Positions 5,408 through 61,657 of a stretch of DNA of 64,000 nucleotides are shown here, one piece after another. This stretch comes from Candidatus Latescibacterota bacterium (GTDB taxonomy: Bacteria; Latescibacterota; UBA2968; UBA8231): positions 17,825 to 81,824 of the forward strand of contig JAJDVZ010000156.1 in assembly GCA_022825835.1 (NCBI GenBank), in the 5' to 3' direction. The translations under genes were made by a program, and so were the position numbers. Numbering within the stretch: the first letter of the stretch is position 1; each line of letters starts with the position of its first letter. Under the pieces are notes generated by a model. The model was not told the DNA's origin. It did not search any database and was given only the letters and a program-made list of their open reading frames with translations.

Positions 5408-5432
5408 GCGGCATCCCACGGGAGGAAATAAT

Positions 5433-6302: not shown

Positions 6303-6324
6303 GGGCAATCCCTTGTGGTTGCCC
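6302..6324 (+). repeat. REP-like hairpin GGGGCAATCCCTTGTGGTTGCCC directly after the MBL stop codon
   Basis: 8-bp stem with a 6-nt loop. The same motif family recurs at 42970-42991 (same orientation) and at 43006-43027 and 43079-43100 (reverse orientation). Confidence 0.6.
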
Positions 6325-6459
6325 AATCCCCTATGGACGGTGTATAGCCATCCTAAATCCTTCACCAGACGATCCGCAGATGGACGCAGAATAGTAGAAA
6401 CAAGACGATCCGCAATCTGAATCGTTTAAGTCATGCAGGACTGTTATAAAAAGAAAAGT

Positions 6460-8580: not shown

Positions 8581-8597
8581 ACGGGAGGGCGTTTTCT

Positions 8598-11327: not shown

Positions 11328-11329
11328 TC

Positions 11330-14062: not shown

Positions 14063-14072
14063 GAGGATTTCT

Positions 14073-32975: not shown

Positions 32976-34280
32976 TTAGCCGATGCCCAGTGCCGCGTCG
33001 ATTTCGGCTTGGTACTCATAGACGGCTCCGCTTTCTACCTCGCTGAGCTGCACCGTCCGCCCCAGCCGACTCGACTCGAAAATCGCGTACACCGCGGCCA
33101 CGTCTTTTAGGCCCTCTATTCCATCCACCTCGATTTTCCGCCCGTTGAGAATGGCCTCGGCTAGTTCAAAGTACTCTAGCGCCAACAGTTTCCAGTCGAT
33201 ATCTGGGTCGGCGACCCGCTCGGGGAAAAAGTGCTCGGCCAATGGCTCTAGGGCGAATGCTTCTGCGTCAGCCACGAGCGCGGCGTGGTCGAGCGTTGTG
33301 CCGTCGGCTCGTTGCAGGCACGCCCTAGCGCCGCGTGTACCAAATCCTTGCATCACGCCCTCGGACCCGAAAATCACCTCGCCGCCGCAAGAGCCGTAGC
33401 CCCCCAAGCCCACCACCCAGTTGACCGCGAGGCCGCTTTCCATCCGAAACATTGCCATAGAGGTGTCTTCGGCCGTGGCTTCGACTTGCTGCTCCATCTC
33501 GGCGAAGCGGGTTTGGTAAAACTCATAGGGCGAGTTGACGGCTTCGGGCTTGTGGCGCACCGGCGAGGCTAATTCGACGGCCCCGTAGGCTTCCTTGATG
33601 TCCCCGAGTTGGTAGCGAATCATGTCGGTGAAATGGACGCCGAGATCCAACAGCAGCCCGCCCCGATCCTTCATGTGCCGCCAAGGCGTGATGAACACCT
33701 CGCGATGCGGGGCTAGCGAGTGGAAGATCGCCATGTAGGGGCGGCCAATGGCCCCCTGCTCCAGCAGGTGATGCACCAGCCGCGACGAGGGATCGCGGCG
33801 GTAATTTTCCGCCACCGACAGGATGCGCTGGTTGCGCTCGGCGGCCTCGATCATCTGCTGGCAGCCCTTAACGGTAATGGCCATGGGCTTTTCCACCATT
33901 ACGTGCAGCCCCAGATCGAGCGCTTGGCAGACCACGGCGTGATGCACCGACGGGTCCACCACGACATCCACGGCCATGAGGTCGGGGACCTCGCGGTGCA
34001 TGGTTTCGAGGTCGGTGAACACCGCGGGCCGCTGGCCCACGAGTTTTTCGGCTTCTGTGGCCGCTAGCTCGGCGTTGTCGCGCCGGATGTCGCATACGGC
34101 GACTAGGTCCACATTGTCAAACGGGGTTTTGGCGAGTGTTGCTAAGCCGTATAGGTGCCGCGTTCCCATGCCCCCGCAGCCTACTAATGCCAGTCTGATT
34201 TTGTCCAAAGTCGCCTCTCTTTCTGTGGGGAGTACAACGAATGAAATGCCCGAGGGCGTTGAAATCGAGCGTCCTTGCAT
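32976..34280 (-). CDS. Gfo/Idh/MocA family oxidoreductase (long form)
   Basis: IRLALVGCGGMGTRH Rossmann motif and the MVEKPMA motif. 434 aa. Confidence 0.85.
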   Translation of the reverse strand: MQGRSISTPSGISFVVLPTEREATLDKIRLALVGCGGMGTRHLYGLATLAKTPFDNVDLVAVCDIRRDNAELAATEAEKLVGQRPAVFTDLETMHREVPDLMAVDVVVDPSVHHAVVCQALDLGLHVMVEKPMAITVKGCQQMIEAAERNQRILSVAENYRRDPSSRLVHHLLEQGAIGRPYMAIFHSLAPHREVFITPWRHMKDRGGLLLDLGVHFTDMIRYQLGDIKEAYGAVELASPVRHKPEAVNSPYEFYQTRFAEMEQQVEATAEDTSMAMFRMESGLAVNWVVGLGGYGSCGGEVIFGSEGVMQGFGTRGARACLQRADGTTLDHAALVADAEAFALEPLAEHFFPERVADPDIDWKLLALEYFELAEAILNGRKIEVDGIEGLKDVAAVYAIFESSRLGRTVQLSEVESGAVYEYQAEIDAALGIG

Positions 34281-34295
34281 GGACGACCGGGAGGG

Positions 34296-34638
34296 TCACT
34301 TGGCCCACAACGTCAAGCGTAGCTCATCGCCGAACAGCTCGTACTTTGGGCGTCGGCCCGCGTGTGCTTCGCCATCCTCTAGAATCTTCCGCACGCCTTC
34401 GCCGCGCGATTCGAGGAATACCTGTCCGGTGCACTTGCTGCGAATCCTCGATAGGAAGCTGACCAAGAGCTGATTGCGGGTGAACGTGCGGTAGGCCATA
34501 TCGGCGATCGTGATGGTGTTGGGCAATTTGCCGGGGCTGTACAATTCCAGTCCCGAAGCGCACTTCTTTGAACTCGGCGCGGCCGTCTTCGCCAGCGCGG
34601 AGTTGGTGCAGTATCTGATCCGTAGTATCGAACATCAA
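34296..34638 (-). pseudogene. Degraded AlbA_2 / HATPase_c_4-type putative regulator (frameshifted, internally deleted)
   Basis: One frame gives an N-terminal-like ILHQLRAGEDGRAEFKEVRF. Another frame gives a C-terminal-like RNQLLVSFLSRI...ESRGEGVRKILED...RPKYELFGDELRLTLW. Together they span only about 340 nt, against more than 1.2 kb for intact genes. Confidence 0.5.
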
Positions 34639-34710
34639 CCTACTCTCTTGGTTGGATGCTGATCGGGGTGCTGGGCGGCTTCTCCATCCCCCAAGTGGAG
34701 TAGCCGATTT

Positions 34711-35643
34711 TCACGCGTGCTCCTCGCGGGTGGCGCGGACCTCGTCGATGGCCTTGCAATGCCGCAGCCCCACGGACTTGGCTGGCGTTTGATAGCCCTT
34801 CCAGGCGTAGGGGTCGGTGCCGGCCACGGGCACGATGTTGCGCCGGTCAGCGCGGGCGGGCGACTCGCCTTCTTCAATGCTCCAAGGCAACAGGCTCCAG
34901 GCGTTGCAGTAGTGGTTGACTAAGACGCGGCGATAGGTGTCGCCGCGGTTTTTGTACGAGCGGTGGAGGAGATAGCCGTTGAAGAATACGAGGGCACCGG
35001 CCTCCACTTCAACCGGGATCTCGACGCTCTCGTCAAAGCCGTAGCTTTCGGGCGCGAAGTCGAACTCGTCTGGATTTTCGTGGGACCGCTGCGGGTAGAG
35101 GTACCCGGGTCGGTGCGATCCCGGAATGACGTACAGGCAGCCGTTTTCCACGGTGGCGTCGTCCACGGCGATCCACGCGCCGATTAGCGAGCGATCCCGC
35201 GTGGGGATGTAGATCTCGTCTTGGTGCCAAGCCTGCCCTTGGAAGTTGGGCGGCTTGACGAAGTACATGGACTGCATGCACTTGACGCTGCCGTCCCAAA
35301 AGGGCAGGTGCGCGGCGGTGATCTGGCTCAGGATGCCGCAGATTTTGGGGTGGCAGACGTACTTTTCGATGACTGGACTGACGTAGTGCGGCTGGTGGAT
35401 GCAGAGGATGCTCTCCAGCACCGCTTGGTCGCTCATGGTAGGATCGACCGGCTCGATGTTATCGCACTCGTAGCGGCCGCGCGCCACATCTACGAGATCG
35501 CCTTTGAGTTCGTCGAGTTCGGCTTCTTCCATCAGGCCCGGCACGACGAGATAGCCATCGTCGATAAAGGACTGCACTTGGGTGGGGGTGAGCGGCTTGG
35601 GGACTTTAATTGCCGGACTGGGATTCATCTTAATTGCTTCCAT
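34711..35643 (-). CDS. Phytanoyl-CoA dioxygenase (PhyH) family Fe(II)/2-oxoglutarate oxygenase
   Basis: FIDDGYLVVPGL..., WHQDEIY (HxD), VIPGSHR and FFNGYLLHRSYKN motifs. Confidence 0.85.
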   Translation of the reverse strand: MEAIKMNPSPAIKVPKPLTPTQVQSFIDDGYLVVPGLMEEAELDELKGDLVDVARGRYECDNIEPVDPTMSDQAVLESILCIHQPHYVSPVIEKYVCHPKICGILSQITAAHLPFWDGSVKCMQSMYFVKPPNFQGQAWHQDEIYIPTRDRSLIGAWIAVDDATVENGCLYVIPGSHRPGYLYPQRSHENPDEFDFAPESYGFDESVEIPVEVEAGALVFFNGYLLHRSYKNRGDTYRRVLVNHYCNAWSLLPWSIEEGESPARADRRNIVPVAGTDPYAWKGYQTPAKSVGLRHCKAIDEVRATREEHA

Positions 35644-40143: not shown

Positions 40144-41760
40144 CTATACGCCCGCAGCCCAGCCATTGCCTCCAGCGCGTACCTTGCCCTCGCTTTTGAG
40201 TACTTCCGCGCCGTGCGCACCGCCGGCCACGGCTTCTCTTACCAGCACCCGGTGGCCCATTTCTCTTAGGGTTTGCACAATCGCCGGGTCGATGCCGCGT
40301 TTTAGTTCGAGGGGTTCTTGGGCTTCGGCGTTGAGTCGGAGGGCTGTGGCCGCTCCCAAGGCGGTGGCGTTGAAGTCGATAATGCGCTGCCCGAGTTGGG
40401 CACCGACGCTGATGATGCGGCGACCGCCGGGTAGGCCGATGGCCACGTCGCGCTGGGGCCGGCGCAAGATCATGGGAACCACGTTGTTGAGCGGACGCTT
40501 GTGCGCGGCCACGGAGTTAGCTCGACCGGGACGGGGGTCCAAACGGCACATGCCGTGGCCCAAAATAATGCCTGTGCCCGGTACTGTGAGACAGGAGCCA
40601 AAGGCCCCGCCTTGGGTTATGGTAATGCCGACGAGATTGCCTTCGGCATCTGCAGCCGATACGTGCAGGGTTTCGGACACGGCTGGACCCGAGGCTTCGT
40701 ACACTTGCTGATCGACCTGCTCGGGGAATTGTTGCAGGGCTTCGACGCGACCGGCGGCGTAGTCCTTACTCAGCAAGCGCTCGACTGGTACATCGACGAA
40801 ATCGGGATCGCCGACGTAGCGCAGGCGGTCGCGCCAAGCCTGTTTGACGACTTCGGCTAGCTGGTGCCAGTACAGGGCTTGGTCGTCGGGTACTATGGGC
40901 AGGCATTCCAACATGTGGAGAATCTGGAGGGCAGAGAGGCAGCCGTTGGGCAAAATCGGCCCGTACACTGGCACGTCGCGGTAGGTGATTTGGTACGGCT
41001 CGGTCAGGCGCGGCGCAAAAGCAGCCATATCCTCGCGGGTGAGAGCACCGCCGCTGGCTTGGACATAATCGCCGATGGTGCGGCCCAATTCGCCGTCGTA
41101 AAAGTCGCGCCAGCCGGCTTGAGCCAAACGCGCCAGGGTGCGCTCCATGTCGGGGCGATGCCAAATGTCGTCGGGGCTAGGCAACTCGCCTTGCGGAGCG
41201 AGGTGGCTGAAAGTTGCGGGGAAGCGGCGCAGAATGGCTTCTTGGCTGCGGATGGTACCGGCTAGGGCTGGGCCGTAGGGAAAGCCGTCGGCGAGCAGCC
41301 CTTGGGCCGGGGCGACAATCGCGTCCCAAGGCAACTTTCCCCAGCGCTCGTGCAAGAAGCCCATGCCAGCCATTTGGCCGGGGACGGCTACGGACTGGGG
41401 GCCGTACACGTTGGCATCGTCGCGGACGCTACAGGCGTATTCCTTTTCGTTGGTGCACATGTTGTCGCGGCGGGCTGGCAGAATATCGTACATGTGCTCG
41501 TGGGCAGCGGCTGGAGCCACGGCATTGGCGTCGAGCGACCAGACGCGGCCAGTGGAACCTTCTAAGACGACCGCCGCCGACATGTAGCCGCCGATGCCAT
41601 TGGATTGGGGGGCCAACATGCAGCAGGCCAAACTGGTGGCCGCGGCCGCATCCATGGCGTTGCCGCCTTGGGCCAATATCTGTGCGCCAATGCGCGCCGC
41701 AGCCGGCTGCTGGGCGGATACAGCGCCGCGGTCGGCTAGTACTTGGTGTCCTTCGGTCAT
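40144..41760 (-). CDS. Gamma-glutamyltransferase family protein (no signal peptide)
   Basis: GAQILAQGGNAMDAAAATSLACCMLAPQSNGIGG, autoprocessing-site-like SETLHVSAADAEGNLVGITITQGGAFGS, and LNNVVPM. Confidence 0.85.
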   Translation of the reverse strand: MTEGHQVLADRGAVSAQQPAAARIGAQILAQGGNAMDAAAATSLACCMLAPQSNGIGGYMSAAVVLEGSTGRVWSLDANAVAPAAAHEHMYDILPARRDNMCTNEKEYACSVRDDANVYGPQSVAVPGQMAGMGFLHERWGKLPWDAIVAPAQGLLADGFPYGPALAGTIRSQEAILRRFPATFSHLAPQGELPSPDDIWHRPDMERTLARLAQAGWRDFYDGELGRTIGDYVQASGGALTREDMAAFAPRLTEPYQITYRDVPVYGPILPNGCLSALQILHMLECLPIVPDDQALYWHQLAEVVKQAWRDRLRYVGDPDFVDVPVERLLSKDYAAGRVEALQQFPEQVDQQVYEASGPAVSETLHVSAADAEGNLVGITITQGGAFGSCLTVPGTGIILGHGMCRLDPRPGRANSVAAHKRPLNNVVPMILRRPQRDVAIGLPGGRRIISVGAQLGQRIIDFNATALGAATALRLNAEAQEPLELKRGIDPAIVQTLREMGHRVLVREAVAGGAHGAEVLKSEGKVRAGGNGWAAGV

Positions 41761-47404: not shown

Positions 47405-49432
47405 TTACTTGAGCAAGAGCATCTGGCGGGTCTGCCCGCCGCCGGGGTGGAAAAGCCGCGTCAGATAGACGCCCGCGGCCACCGCCGCCCCGCGCTGGTC
47501 GCGGCCATCCCAGGGGACTTGGTAGAAGCCTGCGGGCTGGTATTGATCCACGAGGGTGCGCACCGGCTGCCCCAAGGCATTGTAAATTTTCAGCCGCACT
47601 GCACCGGGGGTGGCTATACGGTAGATAAGATAGGTGCTGGCGTTGAACGGGTTGGGATAATTGGGATCTAGGCTGCTGACGTCCGGTAGCAAGCGCGGTG
47701 CCGAAGATTGAATCGCCGTTGGTTCAGCGGGGGTGATGTAGGGCGACATATCCCATAGCAGCATTATGTTGTCCCAACTGCCACTGGCGAGAGTAGTCCC
47801 ATCGGGCGAGAACGTCACTGAATAGACCCAACTATGATGTCTTGTGAGAGTGTTTATTAGTTGTCCAGCTTCCACGTCCCATAGCCGCACTGTGCTGTCC
47901 TCACTGCCACCACTGGCGAGGATGGTTCCATCCGGTGAGAACGCCACGGAACAGACCAGATCCGTATGGCCTGTGAGAGTGTTTATTAGTTGTCCAGCTT
48001 CCACGTCCCATAGCCGCACTGTACCGTCCCAATGGGCACTGGCGAGGGTGGTTCCATCGGGCGAAAACGCCACGGAATAGACCGCATTTCCTCTATGGTC
48101 TAAGGTGTTTATCAGTTGTCCTGCTTCTACCTTCCACAACCGCACCGTGCCGTTGTCCCAATCGGCACTGGCGAGGGTGGTTCCATCGGGTGAAAACGCC
48201 ACGGAATGGACCGGAGTCCTAGTATAAGCCGGAGCCCTAGTATTACCTAAAGTGTTTATTAGTTGTCCTGCTTCTACGTCCCATAACTGCATCGTGCCGT
48301 CCAAACTGGCACTGGCGAGGATGGTTCCATCGGGCGAAAACGCCACGAAAGTCACATAATCCGTATGGCCTGTGAGTGTGTTTACCAGTTGTCCTGCTTC
48401 TACGTCCCATAATTGCACCGTGCCATCCCGAATGGCACTGGCGAGGATGGTTCCATCCGGTGAAAACGCGACGGAATGGATCGCCCCCCCATGACCTAAG
48501 GCTTTTACCCATTGTTCTGACTCCACGTTCCACAGCCGCACTGTGCTGTCCAAGCTAGCACTGATGAGGGTGTTTCCATCGGGTGAGAAGGCCACGGCAT
48601 AGACCAGATCCGTATGGCCTGCGAGAGTGTTTATTAGTTGTTCTGACTCCACGTTCCACAGCCGCACTGTGTAGTCCCAACTGCCACTGGCGAGGATGGT
48701 TCCATCGGGTGAGAAGGCCACGGACAAGACAGAACTCGTATGGCCTGTGAGAGTGTTTATTAGTTGTCCAGCTTCTACATCCCATAGCCGCACTGTGTAG
48801 TCCGAACTGGCACTGGCAAGGGTTTTTCCATCGAGCGAGAACGCCACGGAACGGACTCCACCCGTATGGCCTGTGAGAGTGTTTATCAGTTGTCCAGCTT
48901 CTACATCCCATAGTCGCACTGTGTAGTCCGAACTGGCACTGGCAAGGGTTTTTCCATCGGGCGCAAACGCCACGGAATGAACTCTATCCGTATGCTCTAA
49001 GGTGTTTAGTAGTTGTCCAGATTCCACATTCCATAGCCGCACTGTGCGGTCTCGACTGGCACTAGCGAGGGTTTTTCCATCCGGCGCAAACGCCACGGAA
49101 TAGACCGAATCCGTATGGCCTCTGAGGGTGTCTATCCATTGTCCAGCTTCCACATCCCATAGTCGCACTGTGCCGTCCCGACTGGCACTGGCGAGGGTTT
49201 TTCCATCCGGCGCAAACGCCACGGACCAGACAACACCCATATGGCCTGTGAGTAGAGCGATTTCAGCACTGGTGTTCGCATCGTCGAGCGAGACGCCTGC
49301 ACTGGTGCTCACCTTGCCCGAGCGGGCGAGGGCTTCTGCGGGCCAAGGGGTGTAGTCTTGGGCGAAACTGCTCTGCACCCATAAGGCACAGACGACCAAG
49401 AAGCTGACGTTGGACAACCGGATCTTGTTCAT
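47405..49432 (-). CDS. Secreted WD40-repeat protein (12 recognisable blades) with T9SS type-A-like C-terminal domain
   Basis: True start is the ATG at 49432 (SD AAGGAGGA; signal peptide MNKIRLSNVSFLVVCALWVQSSFAQ). Repeats read GHT..V.SVAFSPDG..LASAS.D.TVRLWDVEAGQLINTL. C-terminal NYPNPFNASTYLIY...LKIYNALGQPV...WDGRD..G..VAAGVYL...MLLLK. Confidence 0.85.
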   Translation of the reverse strand: MNKIRLSNVSFLVVCALWVQSSFAQDYTPWPAEALARSGKVSTSAGVSLDDANTSAEIALLTGHMGVVWSVAFAPDGKTLASASRDGTVRLWDVEAGQWIDTLRGHTDSVYSVAFAPDGKTLASASRDRTVRLWNVESGQLLNTLEHTDRVHSVAFAPDGKTLASASSDYTVRLWDVEAGQLINTLTGHTGGVRSVAFSLDGKTLASASSDYTVRLWDVEAGQLINTLTGHTSSVLSVAFSPDGTILASGSWDYTVRLWNVESEQLINTLAGHTDLVYAVAFSPDGNTLISASLDSTVRLWNVESEQWVKALGHGGAIHSVAFSPDGTILASAIRDGTVQLWDVEAGQLVNTLTGHTDYVTFVAFSPDGTILASASLDGTMQLWDVEAGQLINTLGNTRAPAYTRTPVHSVAFSPDGTTLASADWDNGTVRLWKVEAGQLINTLDHRGNAVYSVAFSPDGTTLASAHWDGTVRLWDVEAGQLINTLTGHTDLVCSVAFSPDGTILASGGSEDSTVRLWDVEAGQLINTLTRHHSWVYSVTFSPDGTTLASGSWDNIMLLWDMSPYITPAEPTAIQSSAPRLLPDVSSLDPNYPNPFNASTYLIYRIATPGAVRLKIYNALGQPVRTLVDQYQPAGFYQVPWDGRDQRGAAVAAGVYLTRLFHPGGGQTRQMLLLK
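47800..49230 (-). repeat. Near-identical in-frame tandem repeats encoding the WD40 blades
   Basis: Strings such as GAGAGTGTTTATTAGTTGTCCAGCTTC recur at roughly 42-codon spacing (for example near 47845, 47975 and 48750). Confidence 0.8.
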
Positions 49433-49464
49433 CGGCGTATCCTCCTTAGTCATTTTCTTGAATT

Positions 49465-49659
49465 TTAATTCGCATTCGCATCTCTCCTCTCCTCGCGGAA
49501 GAGCACGCGGATGAAGACGATGCTCATGGCCAACAAAAAGAGTAGCAGAATGAGCGCCGCGCCCGCGCCCTTGCCGAGCCGCAGGTGTTCGAAGGCGATG
49601 CGATAGACTGTAATCGGCACCACCTGCGTGGCCTTGGCCGGGCCGCCTTCGGTCATTAT
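49465..49659 (-). pseudogene. Orphan 3'-terminal fragment of a MalF-like permease gene (duplicate of 50863-51051)
   Basis: Encodes MTEGGPAKATQVVPITVYRIAFEHLRLGKG.AALILLLFLLAMSIVFIRVLFREERRD, almost identical to the C-terminus of the 299-aa permease. No N-terminal part is present. Confidence 0.75.
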
Positions 49660-50877
49660 TACGGCTAAAATCAGCCCTTTTTCGCATTCTGGATCAGCAG
49701 GGCTTCACTCGGCGGTTATCTCATCCAACAAGCGCGTGAACTCGGCCAGTTCCGCCACCTGGATGGCGGCGCGCAGCAAGACTTGGAGTTGCTCGACTGC
49801 TTCAATACTCTCCAAGCGCTCCGACAACGCCTTGGCCGCATCCGCATCAAACCGAAGCGCCAAGGCTTCTTGGATACTTTGCCGAAGCCCTTGCTCCAGC
49901 CCTTGCTCCAGCCCCTCCTCATGTCCCTCCTCACGTCCCTCCTCACGTCCCTGCTTCAGCCCTTCCTCATGCCCCTGTTCCAGTGCTCGCTTGCGCAAAG
50001 ACTCAAGTAACGGAAACTCAGTCATGATCTCCTCCGATATAAAAGAAAAAACGGTTGATTCCTCGCATACCAATGAACTCAACATCCCCATGTGTGCCAA
50101 CACACTATGCTTAACGGCACGAGATACAGCTAACTCCTCGGTCGTTTCCACACACTGACGCAACCACGCATCCACATCCATCCCTTGAGGACGCCCCATC
50201 AGCGGCGTAAAGGGCAGCACCCCCACATTGCCCGACGACAAATACGTCATCCCATCCAACGCAATCAAACGGATCACCTTATAGCGCAGCAGTACCTCAA
50301 AGCCCGTATGCTCTTGAATATAATGCCCCGGATCGCGCCGTCCGGCCTCGGGACGCAGGTAGATCACGTAGGAAAACAGGGGCAAGCCGTACTCGGCAAT
50401 GCAGCGTCCCATGTAGCTGGCCATGCGGCGCGGCATGGGCACGGCCGTGCTATCGGTAGTTTGAAACTCGCAATGAACTAACGCTTCCTCGCCTTGGATT
50501 TGCACGTGCAGTAAGCTGTCCATCACCTGCGTCTCGACGGTGGGTTGCTCCGGGTTGAGCATATCCAGTAGCTGCACCTGTGAGTGCCCCAGCAGGAAGG
50601 TCAGAAAGCTCTGCGGATGAGTGCTGAGCAGGGATTTAGAAACGCTGTCAAATTCGGCCATCGGTCCGTTCTCCTGAGAAGCGTTCTTAAAACTCGCGTC
50701 GGACGATAGGTGTATTCGTGGCTACGGACCACGGCGAATTTTAAGACAGCTTCTAAGAGTGGACGCGATGTGATGTAGAGAAATATATCCGATTGGCACA
50801 CCAAGACAAAGGGCATAGCACAGCCCACCGAGGCCATCAAGCACCTTGGCATCTGACGATTTTCAATCGCCGTCCCG
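49660..50877. mobile_element. 1.2-kb inserted segment carrying an Rpn/YhgA-like nuclease gene, bracketed by 174-bp direct repeats
   Basis: The direct repeats at 49486-49659 and 50878-51051 are offset by exactly 1392 bp with no indels and about 9 mismatches by eye. Confidence 0.6.
49705..50661 (-). CDS. Rpn-family recombination-promoting nuclease / putative transposase (PD-(D/E)XK, with DUF4351-like tail)
   Basis: N-terminal D...LVHCEFQT (D...ExQ nuclease core) and RRMASYMGRC. C-terminal low-complexity EQGHEEGLKQGREEGREEGHEEGLEQGLEQGL followed by a helical tail, as in YhgA/Rpn-like proteins. Confidence 0.75.
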   Translation of the reverse strand: MAEFDSVSKSLLSTHPQSFLTFLLGHSQVQLLDMLNPEQPTVETQVMDSLLHVQIQGEEALVHCEFQTTDSTAVPMPRRMASYMGRCIAEYGLPLFSYVIYLRPEAGRRDPGHYIQEHTGFEVLLRYKVIRLIALDGMTYLSSGNVGVLPFTPLMGRPQGMDVDAWLRQCVETTEELAVSRAVKHSVLAHMGMLSSLVCEESTVFSFISEEIMTEFPLLESLRKRALEQGHEEGLKQGREEGREEGHEEGLEQGLEQGLRQSIQEALALRFDADAAKALSERLESIEAVEQLQVLLRAAIQVAELAEFTRLLDEITAE

Positions 50878-53265: not shown

Positions 53266-54012
53266 ATGCAAAATATTCTCATCACAGGTGCTACGGGTCT
53301 GATCGGCACGGCCGCGGTCGCCAGCCTCCGCACCCGCTATAACTTGCGCGCCCTCAACCGCCGCCCGCTCCCAAACATCGACTGCCACCAAGCCGATATC
53401 GCCGATCTCGATGCCATCCGGCCGGCCTTTGCCGGGATCGACGCGGTCGTCCATCTCGCCGCCCATATTGAAAACGATATAGCGGCGATCTTCCGCGCCA
53501 ACTTGCAGGGGACGGGGAATGTTTTTGCCGCAGCTCACGAGGCCGGGGTGCGGCGCGTCCTCTTCGCCAGCAGCGGGTCGGTCATGGGCGGCTATGCCGC
53601 GCTCTCGCCATACAAGGAGCTGTTGGCCGGTGAGTACGACCAAGTGCCGGCTGAGTGGCCGATGCTGACTGCGCAATCGCCCCTGCGGCCAACGGGACTA
53701 TACGCAGCTAGCAAGGTCTGGGGCGAAGAGCTGGGCCGCGAGTACGCTTCGGCCCACGGCATGTCCGTCTTCTGCTTGCGCTTTGGCCGCGTCAATCCGG
53801 AAAACCGCCCGACCCATTCCCGCGAGTTCTGCGTCTGGTGCAGCCAGCGCGACGCCGTGCAGATGATCGAAAAGAGCCTTGCCGCTCCCTTTGACTTGCC
53901 CTTCGACACCTTCTTCGTCAACTCGGACAACAAATGGGGCTACCGCGACTTAGAACATGCTCGCCAGACGGTGGGCTTTGTGCCCGCAGACCAAGCCGAA
54001 GACTACCGCTGA
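53266..54012 (+). CDS. NAD-dependent epimerase/dehydratase family protein
   Basis: Start moved to 53266 (MQNILITGATGLIGTA). YAASK catalytic YxxxK. Confidence 0.8.
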   Translation: MQNILITGATGLIGTAAVASLRTRYNLRALNRRPLPNIDCHQADIADLDAIRPAFAGIDAVVHLAAHIENDIAAIFRANLQGTGNVFAAAHEAGVRRVLFASSGSVMGGYAALSPYKELLAGEYDQVPAEWPMLTAQSPLRPTGLYAASKVWGEELGREYASAHGMSVFCLRFGRVNPENRPTHSREFCVWCSQRDAVQMIEKSLAAPFDLPFDTFFVNSDNKWGYRDLEHARQTVGFVPADQAEDYR

Positions 54013-54023
54013 GGAGAAAATTT

Positions 54024-54845
54024 ATGCTGCCTTTTGCTATATGTGCGATTTTGCTCGCTGCCTCCGCCGTACGCGCGGATATGAACATCAACGCTCCCTT
54101 GTTGGAGACGGCCCCGACCATTGACGGCGACCTTGCCGAGTGGAAGGACCTCGCCCACAACGACGGCATCTGGGACATGCGCCGCATCAGCGAGGCTGGC
54201 TTCTATCGCCTCGATCGCGGTGCGCGCAACCGCCTCACCGACCACGGCGACGAGCCGCATCTCGAAGACGACTTGCGCGCCCGCTACTACATTGCTTGGG
54301 ACGCGCAAAATTTCTACTTCGGGGCCGAGGTCTGGGACAATGTCAATGATCTCGACGACCCCGATCCGGCGGACAAGCGCTGGTATTTCAAGGATGCGAT
54401 TTGTTGGTTTATGGAAGGCCCGCGCGACCGGGCCAACGAGCGCTTCGGCCAAGGCGACAATGCCTTCTGCTTTGTCGCCGATCCGCAGCGCACGCCGCAA
54501 AACGCTTGGTGGCGGCACGGCGCGCCCGGCCAGAGCTACATTGAAGAGCCGATCCCCGAGGCAGCTTGCGACTACGTGGTGCGCATGGATCCTTGGGGCC
54601 GGAGCGCGGCTGATTTTATTTTGGAGGCCCGCGTGGATATGCACGCGACGTTTGCCCACAGCGACCCTCGCTGGCAGCCGCCGCAAGTGGGCGACGAATA
54701 CAGCATGGAAATCGTCCACACCGACCCGGATGGCGGCGCATACGGCGGGCACTTCATGATCTACGGCAATGGCGATGACGACAACACGTGGGGCCGGATG
54801 ATTTTAGTCGGGCCGCGGATGCCGATTGGGCGGCTCGCCGAGTAG
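54024..54845 (+). CDS. Secreted CBM9/DOMON-like putative carbohydrate-binding protein
   Basis: SD GAGGAG, then the ATG at 54024. Signal peptide MLPFAICAILLAASAVRA. APTIDGDLAEWKD...RYYIAWDAQNFYFGAEVWDN is a typical CBM9-like start. Confidence 0.65.
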   Translation: MLPFAICAILLAASAVRADMNINAPLLETAPTIDGDLAEWKDLAHNDGIWDMRRISEAGFYRLDRGARNRLTDHGDEPHLEDDLRARYYIAWDAQNFYFGAEVWDNVNDLDDPDPADKRWYFKDAICWFMEGPRDRANERFGQGDNAFCFVADPQRTPQNAWWRHGAPGQSYIEEPIPEAACDYVVRMDPWGRSAADFILEARVDMHATFAHSDPRWQPPQVGDEYSMEIVHTDPDGGAYGGHFMIYGNGDDDNTWGRMILVGPRMPIGRLAE

Positions 54846-54855
54846 GAGAAAGAAA

Positions 54856-55392
54856 ATGCACCGTAGCGCAGTACTTCTGTCCTTGGTAACTGCGACCCTC
54901 ATCGCCCTCGTCGGCTGCAGGTCCAATCCGGTCTCCACGGGCGGTCAAGCGCCTGAATTCACCTTACCTGCGGCAGATGGGACTTCTGTTTCCCTGTCCG
55001 ACTTACTCGACAACCGCACGGCGGCGGTACTGCTGTTCTACAGAGGATTCTTCTGAGGTTCCTGTCGGAGCCAACTAGGTGAGTTGGCAGATGTGTATCC
55101 CGAGTTTCTAGAGCGCAACGTGTCACTTGCGGCGATCAGTACTGATGACATGGCCGACGCGCTGAAAATGGTGGAGCTCACCGGCGCTGAATTCGCCATT
55201 CTGTCAGATAAGGACGCCGAGGTCGCCAAGGACTACGGAGTTTACAACCTGCTGAATGACGGTGTCGCGACGCCGTCCGCCGTCATCGTCTCCCCCGAGG
55301 GAGACATCGAATGGAAATACGTAGGGAGAAGTATATCCGACCGGGCGACGCCTGATGCAATTTTGGCTCAAGTTGACCGGCTGATACAGTGA
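54856..55392 (+). CDS. AhpC/TSA (peroxiredoxin-like/redoxin) lipoprotein with in-frame TGA at the first CxxC position (candidate selenoprotein, U-G-S-C)
   Basis: Track ORFs 54826-55056 and 55084-55392 are in the same frame, separated only by the TGA at 55054-55056. The joined product reads APEFTLP...AAVLLFYRGFF[TGA]GSCRSQLGELADVYPEF...AISTD...ILSD, a continuous redoxin fold. Lipobox LVGC. SD AGGAGAA. Confidence 0.6.
55070..55088 (+). promoter_or_regulatory. Candidate bacterial SECIS-like hairpin
   Basis: GCCAACU-AGGUG-AGUUGGC gives a 7-bp stem. The loop contains GGU. The stem starts 13 nt after the TGA. Confidence 0.4.
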
Positions 55393-55484: not shown

Positions 55485-55715
55485 ATGAACCTACAACACA
55501 CAATCAAAGCGTTCATCAGGTCGGGCGAGACCCACTACATTGCCGAGTGCGTCGAGTTGGCCGTTGTAACGCAAGGCGTCACTTTGGACGAAACCTTGGA
55601 CAACCTCCGCGAAGCGGTCGCACTACATATAGAGGGCGAAGACCTCTCGACTTTCGGTCTAATGCCAGACCCGACGATCTTGGTCACCATGGAATTGGAA
55701 CCAGCGGTTGCCTAG
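55485..55715 (+). CDS. hicB: HicB-family antitoxin (UPF0150 fold)
   Basis: 76 aa. IRSGETHYIAECVELAVVTQGVTLDETLDNLREAVALHIEG is typical of short HicB proteins. SD GGAAGGAG. Confidence 0.85.
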   Translation: MNLQHTIKAFIRSGETHYIAECVELAVVTQGVTLDETLDNLREAVALHIEGEDLSTFGLMPDPTILVTMELEPAVA

Positions 55716-55953
55716 GCTAAGACGACTCTCTGGGGACCAAGTCGTTCGTATCCTAGCGAAATTCGGGTTCCGCGTTCACTCCCAGCGCGGGAGTCACATC
55801 AAACTACGGCGAACTTTAGAGGCTGGCACATCTCAAACGCTCACGGTACCTCGGCACCGCGAGTTGGACATCGGAACGCTGAATGCCATCATGCGTCAGG
55901 CGTCCCGGTTTATTCCTGAAGACGAACTGTGGCGAGAGTTTTACACAGATTGA
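55708..55953 (+). CDS. hicA: HicA-family mRNA interferase toxin
   Basis: The TTG start overlaps the hicB stop. LSGDQVVRILAKFGFRVHSQRGSHIKLRR...LTVPRHRELDIGTLNAIMRQA matches the YcfA/HicA motif with the catalytic His in GSH. Confidence 0.85.
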   Translation: MPRLRRLSGDQVVRILAKFGFRVHSQRGSHIKLRRTLEAGTSQTLTVPRHRELDIGTLNAIMRQASRFIPEDELWREFYTD

Positions 55954-55992: not shown

Positions 55993-57600
55993 ATGAGTAG
56001 GGTAGATCAGATCGGCTGGCAGGCCGAGAGCAAAACCGGTGTCATTGCGGCCGGCGGCGCTGGCGCTGTAGCCGCTGGTATTGAAATTCTCGGCGCGGGT
56101 GGCAATGCGGCCGATGCCGCAGCCGGTGCGATTATAGCGCTCAACGTCACTGATCACGGGGCCTGTTCCATCGGCGGGGAAGTGCCGGTGCTCGTCTGGG
56201 ACGGGAAGGCGGTTAAGTCGCTGTCCGGTCAGGGGCGCGCGCCGTTGTCGCCGGAAGCTATTGCTTGGTACATGGAACACGGCATCCCAGACCGCGACAT
56301 CAAGATGGCTCCGGTGCCCTCGGTGGTGGATTTGTGCATTACCCTTTTGCAGCACTACGGCACGCAGAGCTTTGCCGTGATTGTCGCGCCGACCTTGGCC
56401 CTGCTCGACGAAGGCGAGGAGGCGTGGCATACCGACTTGGCGCGGACGCTGCGGCGCATGGTGGAGGAGGAGCACCGCGCTACTGGCAATCGCCAAGAGA
56501 AGTTGCAAGCGGCTTGCGATCACTTCTATGGCCGCCGCGCCGAACACGGCGATATAGCTGAGGACTTAGAGGAATTTTACATAGAGCACGGCGGGTTCTT
56601 GCGCCGCTCGGACTTGGCCGCTCATAGGACTTTGATCGAAGAGCCGGTGGCAGTCGATTACCAGGGCTACCAAGTGTACAAGTGCGGCCCCTGGACCCAA
56701 GGCCCCTATCTGTGCCAAGCCCTGCGCCTGCTCGAAGGGTTTGATCTCAAAAGTATGGGGCATTGCTCGGCCGACTACGTCCACGCGGTCGTCGAAGCGA
56801 TGAAGCTGGCCATGGCCGACCGCGACGCGCACTACGGCGATCCCCTGTTCGTGGACGTGCCTATGGACGCCCTGCTGTCCGACGAATATACCCAGCTACG
56901 GCAGCCCCTGATCGACATGGAGCAAGCCGCGCTGGACGCTCGTCCTGGAGACCCGCTCGGCATGAGGGCACTACAAGAAGGAGGCGCGTTCCAGCCCGGA
57001 GTCGGCGGCACCACCACGTGCGTAGTGGCCGATCGCTGGGGCATGGTCGTATCGGCCACGCCGAGCGCGAATGTCTATCACGCTGGCGGCACCGGCAGCA
57101 CGGGCGTCTCGTATGGCAACCGCCTGCGCAGTCTCAATACGACTCCTGGGCATCCCAACTGCATCGCGCCGGGCAAGCGTCCGCGCATCACCCTGACCCC
57201 CACGCTGGTGCTCAAAGACGGCGCGCCCGTGTTGGCCATCAGCGTGGCTGGCGGCGACTTGCAAGATCAGGCGGCCTTGAACCTCTTGCTCGACTTTGTG
57301 GAGTTTGGAATGCAGCCGGCCGACGCAGTTGTTGCACCGCGCTTTGCCACGGACCACCACGAGGACTCGTTTGACCCCAATCCGGTGCGCGAGCAGACGT
57401 TTATCGAGGCCGGCTCGCTGGCCATCAGCTCGGCTGTCGATGCAGAGGTCCGCGACGAACTGGCGCGGCGCGGCCACCAAGTCGAGGCCCGCAACGGTCC
57501 CATCGCCACCCCAGTCATGCTGTGGGCCGACGCGGGCACGTACTATGCGGCCGGCGATCCGGCTGCGGGTCGCCACGCCGCTGGGCTAGCTGGAGACTAG
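55993..57600 (+). CDS. Gamma-glutamyltransferase family protein (second copy, no signal peptide)
   Basis: GIEILGAGGNAADAAAGAIIALNVTD and nucleophile context GGTTTCVVADRWGMVVSATPS. SD AAGGAG. Confidence 0.85.
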   Translation: MSRVDQIGWQAESKTGVIAAGGAGAVAAGIEILGAGGNAADAAAGAIIALNVTDHGACSIGGEVPVLVWDGKAVKSLSGQGRAPLSPEAIAWYMEHGIPDRDIKMAPVPSVVDLCITLLQHYGTQSFAVIVAPTLALLDEGEEAWHTDLARTLRRMVEEEHRATGNRQEKLQAACDHFYGRRAEHGDIAEDLEEFYIEHGGFLRRSDLAAHRTLIEEPVAVDYQGYQVYKCGPWTQGPYLCQALRLLEGFDLKSMGHCSADYVHAVVEAMKLAMADRDAHYGDPLFVDVPMDALLSDEYTQLRQPLIDMEQAALDARPGDPLGMRALQEGGAFQPGVGGTTTCVVADRWGMVVSATPSANVYHAGGTGSTGVSYGNRLRSLNTTPGHPNCIAPGKRPRITLTPTLVLKDGAPVLAISVAGGDLQDQAALNLLLDFVEFGMQPADAVVAPRFATDHHEDSFDPNPVREQTFIEAGSLAISSAVDAEVRDELARRGHQVEARNGPIATPVMLWADAGTYYAAGDPAAGRHAAGLAGD

Positions 57601-57684: not shown

Positions 57685-59682
57685 ATGACGTCGCCGACTG
57701 CGACCCCTACATATCGAGAAGAGCATACTCGCCAAGGCCCGGCTAGCGGCCTCACGCTCCGCTCCTTGGTGCTCGGCGTCATCCAAGTCCTCGTGGTGTG
57801 CTTGGGCGCGCCCTACGCTATCTGGGTCTTGGGGTCGTCCGAAATCACGTGGTCGTTCTTTCCGATTGCCGTCGGCTTCTCGTTCTGTTGCCTCATCCTG
57901 CTCAACATCCTGCTCAAGACGATCAACCCCGGCTGGGCCTTGCGACCGGCCGAGATGATCACGGTAGTAGTAATGGGCTTGGTGACGACCGGCATCCCCA
58001 TCTTTATGATGGGCTACGTGCTGTCGATCCCCACCACGCCCTATTACTTTGCCTCGGCTGAAAATCAGTGGGGTACCTACGTGTTGCCCTACCTGCCGAC
58101 GTGGCTGTTGCCGAGCAACGACGGCTTGGCCATGACTTGGTTCTTTGAGGGGCTGCCCCTTGGTGAGCCGATGCCTTGGGGCACGCTGCTCGATGCGTGG
58201 GCCATGCCGCTGTTTTGGTGGCTGAGCTTTATCTGGACCTTGTACGCGGTTTGTTTTTGCCTCGTCGTCATCTTGCGCAAGCAGTGGGTCGAGCGCGAGC
58301 GGTTGGCCTATCCGCTGATGGAGGTGCCGCAAGCTCTGGTGGCGGATGCCGATGGTCCGGCGCGCGTGCCGGCCATTTTGCGCAACAAGGTCTTTTGGAT
58401 GGGAGCGGCGATCCCTCTGTGCATCGTATTGTGGAACATCGTCGGCTTTTTCTTTCACTTCTTTCCCAAGATCGAATGGAACCATCCCATCCAAATCGCG
58501 CACGGCTTTCCGACCATTAACATCCGCTTCTACTTTCCGGTCGTTGGCTTCATGTATTTTGCCAACCTCAACGTCACCTTCAGCATCTGGTTTTTCTTTT
58601 TGTTACTGTTGGTCGAAGAGGGTTTGTTTAACCGCTTTGGCGTTGGCGTGACTGAGGCGGACAACTTCGTGTGGGGCTTGCCTTCGACGTCGTGGCAGTG
58701 TTGGGGAGCTTTTGTGGTGCTGGTGCTGTGGGGCTTGTGGATGGCGCGGGATCATCTAAAGGATGTGTTCCGCAAGGCGTGGAATCCCGCGCATCCGGTT
58801 GACGACAGCCGCGAGCTGATGTCCTATCGCAGCGCAGTCGTCGGTCTGCTGGTCGGGATCGTCTATATGCTGGCGTGGCTCAACAAGGCCGGCATGGAAA
58901 TGTCGGTGGCGGCGTTTTTCTTGGGCGGCGTGCTGATTGCCTACTTGGGCATTACCCGCTTGGTGGTGCAGGCTGGCGTCTTTTACCTGACGACGCCCGT
59001 GGTCAGCCAAGCCATGACCATGATGACTTTTGGTACGAGTGCGATTTCGCCGACGGGCTTGGCGGCCTTGGGGATGAGCTATGGGTTCTTCAGCGATGTG
59101 CAGTCGATTTTTATGCCGTCGGCTGCCCATGCCACCCGGCTGCACGACGCCATGCGCATGAGCCGCCGCGGCCTGTGCTTGGCTATTGCGCTGGCCCTGT
59201 TGATCGGCTTTATCGCCGCCATTGTGTACGTTATTGTCATGGCCTACGAGCAGGGGGCTTCCAACTTCAATTCTTGGTTTTTCCGCGTCTCCTCGGGCGC
59301 GGGAGTGCGCTCCTTTGAAGACGCAATGAGCAAAATAAAAACCCCGGCCGATTTCCACGCGCAAAAGTTAGGCTTCTTTGGTATCGGTGCGGCAGCTATG
59401 ACGGTTTTGACGTTTATGCAGTATCGCTTTCCGTGGTGGCCTCTGCACCCGGTAGGTTTGGCGATCTCCGCGATCTGGATGGTGCGCAACCAAGCCCCGG
59501 CGATTTTCGTGTCTTGGGCGGCCAAGAGCCTGATCATGCGCTTTGGCGGCATCGAGCTATACCGCAAGGCCGCACCCTTCTTCATCGGCCTGATTCTCGG
59601 GCACTTTTTTGGGGTGGGGATCTCGTTTATCGTCGATATGATTTTCTTCCCCGGCAACGGCCACCCCATCCTCCACGGCTGA
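57685..59682 (+). CDS. Polytopic membrane protein of unknown function (665 aa, about 14-16 TM helices), paralog 1
   Basis: Long hydrophobic helices throughout. Conserved blocks include PTTPYYFASAENQWGTYVLPYLP, ERERLAYPLMEVPQAL, YFANLNVTFSIWFFF and FFPGNGHPILHG. I recognise no named transporter signature. Confidence 0.8.
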   Translation: MTSPTATPTYREEHTRQGPASGLTLRSLVLGVIQVLVVCLGAPYAIWVLGSSEITWSFFPIAVGFSFCCLILLNILLKTINPGWALRPAEMITVVVMGLVTTGIPIFMMGYVLSIPTTPYYFASAENQWGTYVLPYLPTWLLPSNDGLAMTWFFEGLPLGEPMPWGTLLDAWAMPLFWWLSFIWTLYAVCFCLVVILRKQWVERERLAYPLMEVPQALVADADGPARVPAILRNKVFWMGAAIPLCIVLWNIVGFFFHFFPKIEWNHPIQIAHGFPTINIRFYFPVVGFMYFANLNVTFSIWFFFLLLLVEEGLFNRFGVGVTEADNFVWGLPSTSWQCWGAFVVLVLWGLWMARDHLKDVFRKAWNPAHPVDDSRELMSYRSAVVGLLVGIVYMLAWLNKAGMEMSVAAFFLGGVLIAYLGITRLVVQAGVFYLTTPVVSQAMTMMTFGTSAISPTGLAALGMSYGFFSDVQSIFMPSAAHATRLHDAMRMSRRGLCLAIALALLIGFIAAIVYVIVMAYEQGASNFNSWFFRVSSGAGVRSFEDAMSKIKTPADFHAQKLGFFGIGAAAMTVLTFMQYRFPWWPLHPVGLAISAIWMVRNQAPAIFVSWAAKSLIMRFGGIELYRKAAPFFIGLILGHFFGVGISFIVDMIFFPGNGHPILHG

Positions 59683-59689
59683 GCCCGCG

Positions 59690-61657
59690 TTGTCAATCCA
59701 TCCCGCACAGCAAGAGGGCACAGGCGTCACCGTGCGCTCTTTGCTCGTGGGCTGCGCGGTGGTGGTGTTGATCAGCTTGGGGGCACCGCACTCGATCTGG
59801 ACGTTTGGCTCGTCTGAGATGACGTGGTCGTTCTTTCCGATTGGGGTGGGGTTTCTCTTTGTCTGCCTCATCTTCGCCAACGCCCTGCTGAAGACCTTCA
59901 ATTTTAGCTGGGCACTGCGCCCTGCCGAGCTGATCACCGTCGTCGTCATGGGCTTGGTCTGTACAGGCATTCCGGTTTTTCTAATCGGCTACTTCCTAGC
60001 CATACCGACGACGCCGTATTACTTTGCGTCGGCGGAGAATCAATGGGGCACGTACGTGTTGCCCTACCTACCGACGTGGCTGTTGCCGAGCAACGACGGC
60101 TTGGCCATGACTTGGTTTTTTGAGGGCCTGCCCATCGGCGAACCGACCCCTTGGGGCACCTTGCTAGCCGCTTGGGCCATGCCGCTGTTTTGGTGGCTGA
60201 GCTTTCTATGGACTTTGTACTTGGTCTGCTTCTGCGTGGTGGTCATCCTCCGCAAGCAGTGGATTGAGCGCGAGCGGTTGGCCTATCCGCTGATGGAGGT
60301 GCCGCAAGCCCTCGTCGCCAATGCCGATAGCTCCCGCCGACTGCCAGCGGTCATGTACAGCAAAGTCTTCTGGGCGGGGGCGGCCATTCCGCTTGGCATT
60401 GTCTTGTGGAACATCGTCGGCTTTTTCTTTCACTTCTTTCCCAAGATCGAATGGCAGCATCCCATCCAAATTGCGCACGGCTTTCCGACCATTAACATTC
60501 GCTTCTATTTTCCGGTCATCGGTTTCATGTATTTCGCCAATCTCAATGTCACTTTTAGCATCTGGTTCTTCTTTTTGCTAACGCTGATTGAGGAGGGTTT
60601 GTTCAACCGCTTTGGCCTCGGCGTCACTGAGGCGGATAAATTCGTTTGGGGGCTACCATCGACCTCGTGGCAGTGTTGGGGGGCGTTCGTGGTGTTGGTG
60701 CTGTGGGGATTGTGGATGGCGCGCGACCACCTCAAGGATGTGGTCCGCAAGGCGTGGAATCCGGACTACCCGATTGACGATCGGCGCGAGTTGATGTCCT
60801 ACCGCGCCGCGGTGCTGGGCCTCGTGCTGGGTGTTTGCTACATGCTAACTTGGCTGCACGAGTCTGGCATGGAATGGTCGGTGGCGATGCTCTTTTTGGC
60901 TGGCGTACTCATCGCCTATTTGGGCATTACGCGCTTGGTGGTCCAGACGGGCGTGTTTTATCTGACCACGCCTGTCGTCAGTCAGGCGATGACCATGATG
61001 ACGCTGGGCACTAGCGCCATTTCGCCGACGGGGTTGGCGGCCTTGGGGTTGACCTATTCTTTTTTTGGCGATGTGCAATCCATCTTCATGCCCTCGGCAG
61101 CGCACGCGGCCAAGTTGCAGCACAGTCTGCGCATTGCCCGCCGCGGCTTTGTTTTGGCCATTGCCTTGGCCGTGGTGCTGTCCTTTGCGGTTTCGCTGAC
61201 CAATCTCATAGCTATGGCCTACGAGCAGGGGGCTTCTAACTTCAATTCTTGGATCTTCCGCGTCTCCTCGGGAGCAGGCGTGATGGCCTTTGGCGACGTG
61301 ATGGCCAAGATCAAGGCTCCAGCCGATTTCCACGCGCAAAAGTTAGGCTTCTTCGGCATCGGCGCGGCGGCGATGTCGGTTTTGACGTTTATGCAGTATC
61401 GCTTCCCGTGGTGGCCTCTGCACCCGGTGGGCTTGGCCATTTCCGCGATCTGGATGGTGCGCAACCAAGCACCGGCCATCTTCGTGGCGTGGGCGGCCAA
61501 GAGTTTGATCATGCGCTTTGGCGGCATTGAGCTATACCGCAAGGCTGCGCCGTTCTTCATCGGCCTGATTGCGGGCTACTTTCTCGGCGTTGGTCTCTCT
61601 TTCCTCGTGGATGTGGCGTTCTTCCCCGGCAATGGGCATCCGATCCTGCACGGCTGA
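59690..61657 (+). CDS. Polytopic membrane protein of unknown function (655 aa), tandem paralog 2
   Basis: TTG start 7 nt after the upstream stop. Collinear with paralog 1 and, by eye, roughly four-fifths identical to it. Confidence 0.8.
   Translation: MSIHPAQQEGTGVTVRSLLVGCAVVVLISLGAPHSIWTFGSSEMTWSFFPIGVGFLFVCLIFANALLKTFNFSWALRPAELITVVVMGLVCTGIPVFLIGYFLAIPTTPYYFASAENQWGTYVLPYLPTWLLPSNDGLAMTWFFEGLPIGEPTPWGTLLAAWAMPLFWWLSFLWTLYLVCFCVVVILRKQWIERERLAYPLMEVPQALVANADSSRRLPAVMYSKVFWAGAAIPLGIVLWNIVGFFFHFFPKIEWQHPIQIAHGFPTINIRFYFPVIGFMYFANLNVTFSIWFFFLLTLIEEGLFNRFGLGVTEADKFVWGLPSTSWQCWGAFVVLVLWGLWMARDHLKDVVRKAWNPDYPIDDRRELMSYRAAVLGLVLGVCYMLTWLHESGMEWSVAMLFLAGVLIAYLGITRLVVQTGVFYLTTPVVSQAMTMMTLGTSAISPTGLAALGLTYSFFGDVQSIFMPSAAHAAKLQHSLRIARRGFVLAIALAVVLSFAVSLTNLIAMAYEQGASNFNSWIFRVSSGAGVMAFGDVMAKIKAPADFHAQKLGFFGIGAAAMSVLTFMQYRFPWWPLHPVGLAISAIWMVRNQAPAIFVAWAAKSLIMRFGGIELYRKAAPFFIGLIAGYFLGVGLSFLVDVAFFPGNGHPILHG

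Follow-up and report, generated by a model that had tools for sequence, protein, structure and literature searches.

A probable selenocysteine-containing, peroxiredoxin-like lipoprotein gene with a SECIS-like hairpin in Latescibacterota-type and Dehalococcoidia genomes

Analysis of a 64,000-nucleotide stretch of contig JAJDVZ010000156.1 from a Candidatus Latescibacterota bacterium (assembly GCA_022825835.1), referred to here as the window, identified a gene at 54856-55392 (+) with an in-frame TGA codon at 55054-55056. Our results show that this is one gene with TGA where homologues have a cysteine (Cys) codon, that both of its halves are under selection and that a hairpin just downstream of the TGA is constrained at the RNA level, while the fold and the active-site motif of the read-through product align with those of known redox proteins. 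It is highly likely that UGA-67 is read as selenocysteine (Sec) and that this single gene encodes a conserved UxxC selenoprotein equipped with a hairpin resembling a selenocysteine insertion sequence (SECIS).

Reading frame and conservation of the TGA codon

The two open reading frames (ORFs) at this locus, 54826/54856..55056 and 55084..55392, lie in the same frame with the TGA at 55054-55056 as their sole interruption, just as a preliminary description of this DNA had reported, and from there the frame is open to its own terminal stop, TGA, at 55390-55392. Translation from the ATG at 54856 through the internal TGA gives 178 codons, of which the UGA is codon 67. The read-through protein begins MHRSAVLLSLVTATLIALVGC, which comprises the predicted signal peptide with a lipobox LVGC, and its active-site region is ...AAVLLFYRGFF-[TGA]-GSCRSQLGELADVYPEF..., where the candidate Sec (55054..55056, +) takes the first position of U-G-S-C. 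With Cys placed at the TGA position, the Pfam family AhpC-TSA (PF00578) matched residues 29-153 with an E-value of 2.9e-29 and 102 bits against a 26-bit cut-off. This match spans the TGA and agrees with the earlier view of the read-through product as an AhpC/TSA-like protein. The frame, the PF00578 match, orthologues that are co-linear at full length in 30 loci and the dN/dS ratios given below all delimit the complete candidate selenoprotein coding sequence to 54856..55392 (+).

A scan of species-representative genomes yielded 37 loci, and TGA was found at the position of codon 67 in 30 of 30 distinct orthologous loci, namely 21 of Latescibacterota type (the window included, and some of them carrying the submitter labels Gemmatimonadota or Dehalococcoidia), 8 of Dehalococcoidia and 1 of Chloroflexota. 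The gene is present in complete genomes as well, among them OZ244790.1, OZ220721.1 and OZ241362.1 of Latescibacterota and OZ253472.1 of Dehalococcoidia. The terminal stop of the same orthologues alternates between TGA, TAA and TAG, but the internal codon is always TGA. Distant homologues have a Cys codon at this site, TGC in a locus of Blastocatellia (L033) and TGT in one of Cellvibrionaceae (L035), and the homologues P0096-P0098 have CPYC there, with the motif FYRGGWCPYC in P0096. Where the window has FYRGFF-U-GSC, the Cys homologues read FYRGGWCPYC or FYRGYWCGAC. The tetrapeptide varies within the clade (UGSC, UGVC, USIC, UGDC and UGFC), and U-x-x-C is found in all orthologues. The preliminary description had proposed that the U should align with Cys of homologues and that TGA and TGC should covary at this codon; both proposals are borne out, with TGA facing TGC or TGT across genomes and the terminal stop free to vary.

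The ratio dN/dS was calculated by the Nei-Gojobori method over 36 codons upstream and 111 codons downstream of the TGA. Upstream it was 0.13 in Latescibacterota and 0.12 in Dehalococcoidia, and downstream 0.27 and 0.09, respectively, with dS of ~0.31 within Latescibacterota and >1 within Dehalococcoidia. Purifying selection acts on either side of the TGA, and the range of 0.09-0.27 leaves no sign of the decay downstream of the TGA that the preliminary description had named as the mark of a genuine stop. Since a nonsense codon has been retained over such divergence, with selection on both sides of it, we exclude that the locus is a pseudogene or two separate genes and that the TGA is a sequencing error.

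TGA is also the commonest ordinary stop in the window, ending 23 of 48 long ORFs, among them the Sec gene itself and the three neighbouring genes from which the preliminary description had considered a reassignment of the codon unlikely. Genome-wide TGA reassignment was therefore rejected. TGA codons with at least 50 open codons on each side and a downstream hairpin of at least 6 bp number only 5 in the 64 kb; the one at 55054 has the longest stem of these and was judged the sole one lying in the frame of a real gene. The unfiltered list of TGA-joined ORF pairs in the window comprised 137 entries and was too noisy for use. At 32976-35643 (-), a PhyH gene, a 104-aa ORF and a GFO/IDH/MocA oxidoreductase gene are in one frame and joined by TGA, and these were judged to be ordinary adjacent genes rather than a case of recoding.

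Two relatives depart from the general pattern. The first is a pair of Blastocatellia metagenome-assembled genomes (MAGs) in which the active-site codon is TGC in one (L033:4121) and TGA in the other (L034:4142). The latter lies on a contig of 4.7 kb, and its hairpin, the only one of a TGA form in Blastocatellia, is bulged and statistically unremarkable, with no G in the 5-nt loop. This TGA may represent a separate Sec/Cys switch, a nonsense mutation or an error. The second is a 4.52-Mb Latescibacterota genome (OZ220478.1; L023:4150-4200) in which a 1-nt deletion 13 nt before the TGA changes TTCTAC to TTTAC and causes a frameshift. From the TGA onwards, hairpin and ORF included, the locus is intact despite this deletion, which is either a homopolymer assembly error or the sign of a very recent pseudogene.

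The hairpin downstream of the TGA

The hairpin GCCAACU-AGGUG-AGUUGGC is located at 55070..55088 (+), starts 13 nt after the TGA and consists of a 7-bp stem (GCCAACU/AGUUGGC) and the 5-nt loop AGGUG, so its position, size and GGU-containing loop are as the preliminary description had given them. It is the minimum free energy fold of local stretches of 29 nt and 42 nt (z -2.7, with 6 of 200 shuffles equally stable). In an alignment of 28 sequences, 23 of them distinct, the consensus structure returned by RNAalifold is exactly the proposed hairpin. Standard pairs occupy 97.5% of the cells of this alignment, and the figure falls to 8-45% when the 3' partners are slid by 1-3 columns. Compensatory changes were observed at pair 21:31, from A-U to G-C in three Dehalococcoidia loci (L026, L027 and L031), and at pair 17:35, from G-C to A-U in one locus (L014), in both cases with G-U intermediates. 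The Dehalococcoidia sequences also have an added lower stem right after the UGA, which contains a further compensatory pair, 7:45. Position 2 of the loop is G in at least 90% of the sequences.

A synonymous test, independent of covariation, supports an RNA-level constraint on the hairpin. Synonymous divergence in Latescibacterota is 0.025 over the hairpin codons, +5 to +11, versus 0.243 gene-wide, which ranks this interval 3 among 142 seven-codon windows. In 30 of 30 sequences the Glu codon within it is GAG and the third base of the Leu codon is G, versus 58% and 54% elsewhere in the gene, and these choices preserve pairs of the hairpin. The Cys forms L033 and L035 lack this hairpin. Conservation of the hairpin together with the TGA, on which the preliminary description had made its reading depend, is thus seen in the orthologues, compensatory changes included.

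Predicted fold, active site and export

Among solved structures, the protein matched the BCP peroxiredoxin 2cx3 best (E 2.9e-13), and the next matches were ResA thiol-disulfide oxidoreductases and 2-Cys peroxiredoxins. Cys70 (TGT, 55063..55065, +), the predicted resolving partner in the UxxC motif, is aligned to the peroxidatic Cys of the peroxiredoxins 2cx3 and 4kw6, and the columns T10 and G11 of its codon are invariant in the nucleotide alignment. The Sec is aligned to the S of FSPVC in 2cx3 and to the T of FTFVC in 4kw6, which is the catalytic Thr/Ser site of peroxiredoxins, and the catalytic Arg of both structures is aligned to the invariant Pro140 (55273..55275, +). A canonical peroxiredoxin was considered and rejected, since the catalytic Thr/Ser (T/SxxC) and the Arg are both absent. 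In what we take to be the sequence of Bacillus subtilis ResA, the Sec stands opposite the N-terminal nucleophilic Cys of CEPC, and Pro140 stands opposite the cis-Pro.

According to these alignments, the predicted protein is a peroxiredoxin scaffold with a thioredoxin-type active site. As it lacks the Thr and Arg of peroxiredoxins, it appears likelier to be an exported thiol:disulfide oxidoreductase resembling ResA/TlpA than a peroxidase. The preliminary description had placed the TGA at the resolving/peroxidatic position of the CxxC motif. The TGA does correspond to the first Cys of CxxC, but it does not correspond to the peroxidatic residue, as Cys70 holds that site and the Sec aligns with the Thr.

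Export is predicted from the N-terminus, which in the window protein consists of M-H-R, a hydrophobic stretch and L-V-G-C21. By eye, this fits the lipobox [LVI][ASTVI][GAS]C, with a signal peptide at 54856..54918 (+) and Cys21 (54916-54918) as the predicted lipidation site. The lipobox of Latescibacterota-type orthologues is LVGC, LAGC or LTGC; variants of the signal are AAC or LAC in Chloroflexota lineages and of AxA type in Blastocatellia. A predicted signal or lipobox is retained in the orthologues. An exported and lipid-anchored example would in this way join a list of predicted thioredoxin-fold selenoproteins that is mostly cytoplasmic.

The gene has been consistently split by annotation. 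A protein search with the Cys-substituted query returned ~93 clusters with 51-99% identity and 97-112 aa in length, all of which represent only the part after the TGA, and neither a full-length close relative nor a close Cys form was present among those ~93 clusters. On two contigs that were fetched, a 66-aa or 82-aa ORF is followed by a 99-aa or 102-aa ORF, and read-through restores FYRGFF-[TGA]-GSC and FYRGFF-[TGA]-GVC. The GenBank entries MYC74115.1 and MXY28274.1 are 102-aa tail fragments named 'peroxiredoxin family protein'. Splitting by automated annotation had been anticipated in the preliminary description, and the ~93 clusters are C-terminal fragments of this kind. The read-through reading therefore corrects a systematic annotation error, in which the clusters carry the tail with the active site missing and no NCBIfam model would rescue the gene. 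It also points to the use of Sec in Latescibacterota-type and Dehalococcoidia MAGs; our literature search returned nothing on selenoproteins in Latescibacterota or Latescibacteria.

Alternative explanations and proposed mechanism

The same gene, with the same Sec decoding, could encode a peroxidase of the peroxiredoxin or GPx-like kind, in which Sec67 or Cys70 would be oxidised by peroxide and the other residue would resolve the product. In GPx and PrxU, selenocysteine reduces peroxides well, the best structure match belongs to BCP/PrxQ (2cx3) with Cys70 at the peroxidatic position, and both the Pfam family (AhpC-TSA) and the name of the GenBank fragments are those of peroxiredoxins. We consider such a function possible but unlikely, given that two of the three peroxiredoxin catalytic residues are gone (Sec stands in place of Thr, and an invariant Pro in place of Arg) and that the motif and the Pro align with the CxxC and the cis-Pro of ResA. 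In addition, all 8 Dehalococcoidia loci have a CopC-CopD-cytochrome c fusion beside the gene, and TlpA/ResA-type reductases are typically found in such a setting.

The other alternatives concern the codon itself. A suppressor or near-cognate tRNA might insert a standard amino acid (Cys, Trp or Gly) at the UGA, stimulated by the hairpin and with no involvement of Sec, because a conserved downstream hairpin could promote generic read-through too and no Sec machinery was found in the window and fetched loci. This is improbable, as the site is the redox-active Cys of a CxxC motif and forms a classic Sec/Cys pair, and the codon is never TAA, TAG or a sense codon in the 30 loci, with TGC only one step away. 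The spacing, the size and the loop G of the hairpin fit a bacterial SECIS, and TGA serves as an ordinary stop throughout the window. Gene callers and GenBank treat the TGA as a true stop, and relative L023 has its 1-nt deletion just before it, which would suit either a pseudogene or a 66-aa lipopeptide followed by a C-terminal protein of 99-102 aa. We give this explanation very little credence: the nonsense codon is kept in 30 loci across dS >1 with both halves under purifying selection, two separate products would each have only part of a thioredoxin fold, severed at the active site, and the synonymous constraint falls exactly on the hairpin. The downstream 'start' is moreover inconsistent among relatives (97, 99, 102 and 112 aa), the one in the window being a TTG inside the hairpin. 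As for a sequencing or assembly error for TGC or TGT, a single base separates TGA from TGC, as in the L033/L034 pair, but the TGA recurs in independent short-read and long-read assemblies of many samples and in the ~93 protein clusters, and this explanation is effectively refuted.

Some of our results weigh against a Sec-decoded oxidoreductase. Neither selA, selB, selD nor tRNA-Sec was found in the window (64 kb) or in related loci amounting to ~300 kb, which says nothing on whole genomes. ARAGORN detected no tRNA in the window and 34 loci, the Pfam scan of ~48 window ORFs gave no SelA, SelB or SelD, and tblastn with queries representing Escherichia coli SelA, SelB and SelD gave no matches in the window or any of the loci. 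The single window sequence, when taken at 60-91 nt, folds into a competing structure instead of the hairpin, and no Rfam family reached its gathering threshold. Covariation is modest, with double changes in 2 of 7 pairs and a score reached by 10-11 of 500 column shuffles, because the stem sits in the conserved QLGEL coding stretch. Finally, the proposed function is derived from alignments. The residual doubt on Sec decoding comes almost entirely from the Sec machinery of these genomes. Clusters of orthologous groups (COGs) for SelA and SelB have been described as enriched and co-occurring in most sponge-symbiont bins of several phyla (PMC5649159), which is circumstantial for the genomes considered here.

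From the features described above we infer SelB-dependent Sec insertion, lipidation, an oxidoreductase chemistry and an electron donor, which can be arranged in the following mechanism. The hairpin 13 nt past UGA-67 would act as a bacterial SECIS and recruit SelB-GTP-Sec-tRNA(Sec), so that Sec would be inserted and termination would not occur. The protein would then be exported by means of its signal peptide, lipidated at Cys21 and exposed to the extracytoplasmic side. There it may function as a thiol:disulfide oxidoreductase of the ResA/TlpA type, with a thioredoxin fold on the AhpC/TSA scaffold. As the exposed nucleophile, Sec67 would attack the disulfide of a substrate (a sulfenate or peroxide is another possible target), and Cys70 would resolve the intermediate through an intramolecular Se-S bond, which would in turn be recycled by a membrane reductant.

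Relation to known families

Descriptions of Prx-like proteins in which Sec and Cys are exchanged within CxxC motifs date back to 2004-2005. The Prx-like thiol:disulfide oxidoreductase selenoprotein family is defined by pfam00578 and UxxC or UxxU, with WP_010940744.1 as the type example (PMC9312934, PMC13188914). By that definition (PF00578 and UxxC) the predicted product is a member of this family. It shares with the family the AhpC-TSA domain, Sec as the first residue of UxxC where homologues have CxxC, and the Sec/Cys pair accompanied by a downstream SECIS-like hairpin. The clade is set apart by a motif of its own, FYRGFF-U-G-x-C, by a lipoprotein signal and by its distribution in Latescibacterota and Dehalococcoidia MAGs. 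Among selenoproteins of this known kind it arguably forms a new subfamily, and its mechanism is not new.

Neither the Sec form nor the Cys homologues tested score above the cut-off of any curated NCBIfam model. For the Sec form, the three best scores were ResA with 55.6 of 170 bits, Bcp with 54.1 of 140 and SelL-related (NF040769) with 53.7 of 120. The SelL-related model, of the PRX_like2 type (FYRGxWCPxC), was the best for 3 of 4 homologues tested, and its FYRG..C..C active-site context is common to P0096 and L035. However, the score of the Sec form is far from the cut-off, those of the homologues are 27-67 bits, and the window protein has FF-U-G-S/V-C instead of GW-C-P-Y-C; it is not a member of NF040769.

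ResA, TlpA and CcmG resemble the window protein in having a membrane-anchored thioredoxin fold that faces outward, which is predicted here, with CxxC corresponding to UxxC and the cis-Pro to Pro140. They differ in that identity is 27%, the ResA model is well below its cut-off and Sec stands in place of the nucleophilic Cys. The Pfam scan of window ORFs revealed no ccdA, dsbD or ccm genes nearby in the window. BCP/PrxQ and PrxU are built on the same scaffold, with 2cx3 as the best structure match and Cys70 at the peroxidatic site. In PrxU the Sec is at the peroxidatic site (TxxU), whereas here it is three residues earlier (UxxC), and the PrxU model gave 44.5 against 270 bits. The tetrapeptide U-G-S-C is also that of the UGSC-containing selenoprotein family (NF041046). 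Membership in this family was rejected, as there was no match to the model at E <= 0.01 and the tetrapeptide is variable within the clade, and the resemblance is coincidental.

The minimal SECIS of E. coli fdhF, a hairpin of 17 nt with GGU in its loop, begins 11 nt past the UGA. The putative element in the window is likewise a coding-sequence stem-loop that closely follows the UGA, here at 13 nt, and its small apical loop also contains GGU; in Dehalococcoidia the lower stem reaches the UGA. In contrast to the fdhF type, its stem has no bulged U, and it has no Rfam match.

Genomic context

A ribosome-binding site, AGGAG, was read directly from the sequence at 54844..54848 (+), with 7 nt between it and the ATG. 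The CBM9-like gene upstream (53934-54845) ends within this site, at a TAG stop (54843-54845), and the overlap suggests that the CBM9-like gene and the Sec gene are co-transcribed. A scan for promoters and terminators around the Sec gene gave nothing convincing.

In Latescibacterota-type genomes the syntenic order comprises a gene for a solute-binding protein (-), an epimerase gene, the gene for the CBM9-like secreted protein, the Sec gene and a gene for gamma-glutamyltranspeptidase (GGT), and the CBM9-like gene is syntenic in 20 Latescibacterota-type loci. In the window, a HicB-like/HicA pair at 55485-55953 lies between the Sec gene and the GGT gene, and some relatives likewise have toxin-antitoxin modules there. 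GGT follows the Sec gene directly in L007, L016 and L020, and in other relatives the gap contains DUF2442/DUF4160 or AAA_15 insertions. This intergenic spot appears to be a hotspot for mobile toxin-antitoxin modules. The window has two GGT paralogues, at 40144-41760 (-) and 55993-57600 (+), and one of them is conserved as the neighbour that lies downstream of the Sec gene.

The neighbourhood is different in Dehalococcoidia. A 732-aa CopC-CopD-cytochrome c fusion follows the Sec gene in 8 of 8 loci, ~15-70 nt past its stop (for example L002:3323-5521, and likewise in L025-L029 and L031), and conserved proteins of 195 aa and 590 aa without a Pfam domain precede it. Extracytoplasmic thiol reductases are presumably common in a setting of this kind.

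The combined evidence on distribution and neighbours allows a wider reading, which we offer tentatively and consider doubtful: the gene may define a distinct extracytoplasmic Sec-lipoprotein subfamily, outside curated models, of marine-holobiont (sponge or coral) symbionts, possibly with lateral transfer between two unrelated phyla, that of the Latescibacterota/PAUC34f-type bacteria and that of Dehalococcoidia. It would be tied to periplasmic glutathione catabolism in the former, because GGT lies directly downstream where toxin-antitoxin modules have not been inserted, and to copper and cytochrome handling in the latter, because the CopC-CopD-cytochrome c fusion is directly downstream in all 8 loci. 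If this is true, selenium would serve outside the cytoplasm to maintain thiols that bind metals or derive from glutathione in the reduced state within oxidising host tissue.

Near-identical copies of the gene, with 87-95% amino acid identity (L005, L006, L011, L012, MYC74115.1 and MXY28274.1), are deposited under four labels, namely Latescibacterota, Gemmatimonadota, Dehalococcoidia and Poribacteria. These four phylum labels point to inconsistent taxonomy or to mis-binned short contigs in MAG sets from holobionts.

The window itself is that of a typical Latescibacterota genome of the PAUC34f type, with 59% GC. Its contents include sugar ABC transporters, many GFO/IDH/MocA oxidoreductases, proteins with WD40 or Kelch repeats and toxin-antitoxin pairs, and this gene repertoire resembles the 'sponge symbiont group II-enriched' list of COGs (PMC5649159, Table S4). 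The repeat proteins comprise a 760-aa WD40-repeat protein at 47405-49687 (-) and a 310-aa Kelch-repeat protein at 27078-28010 (-), and PhyH and an enolase-superfamily protein are also encoded. Tandem paralogues of a large protein with DUF6785 plus DUF6784 (665 and 655 aa), at 57685-59682 and 59690-61657 (+), are kept after GGT in several relatives. At 3413-16586 (+) there is a run of very large, secreted-looking proteins flanked by FG-GAP/ASPIC proteins. Three members of this run have a C-terminal FlgD_ig domain, one of them together with CHU_C (type IX secretion), and two adjacent members, of 909 and 910 aa, are without any Pfam match.

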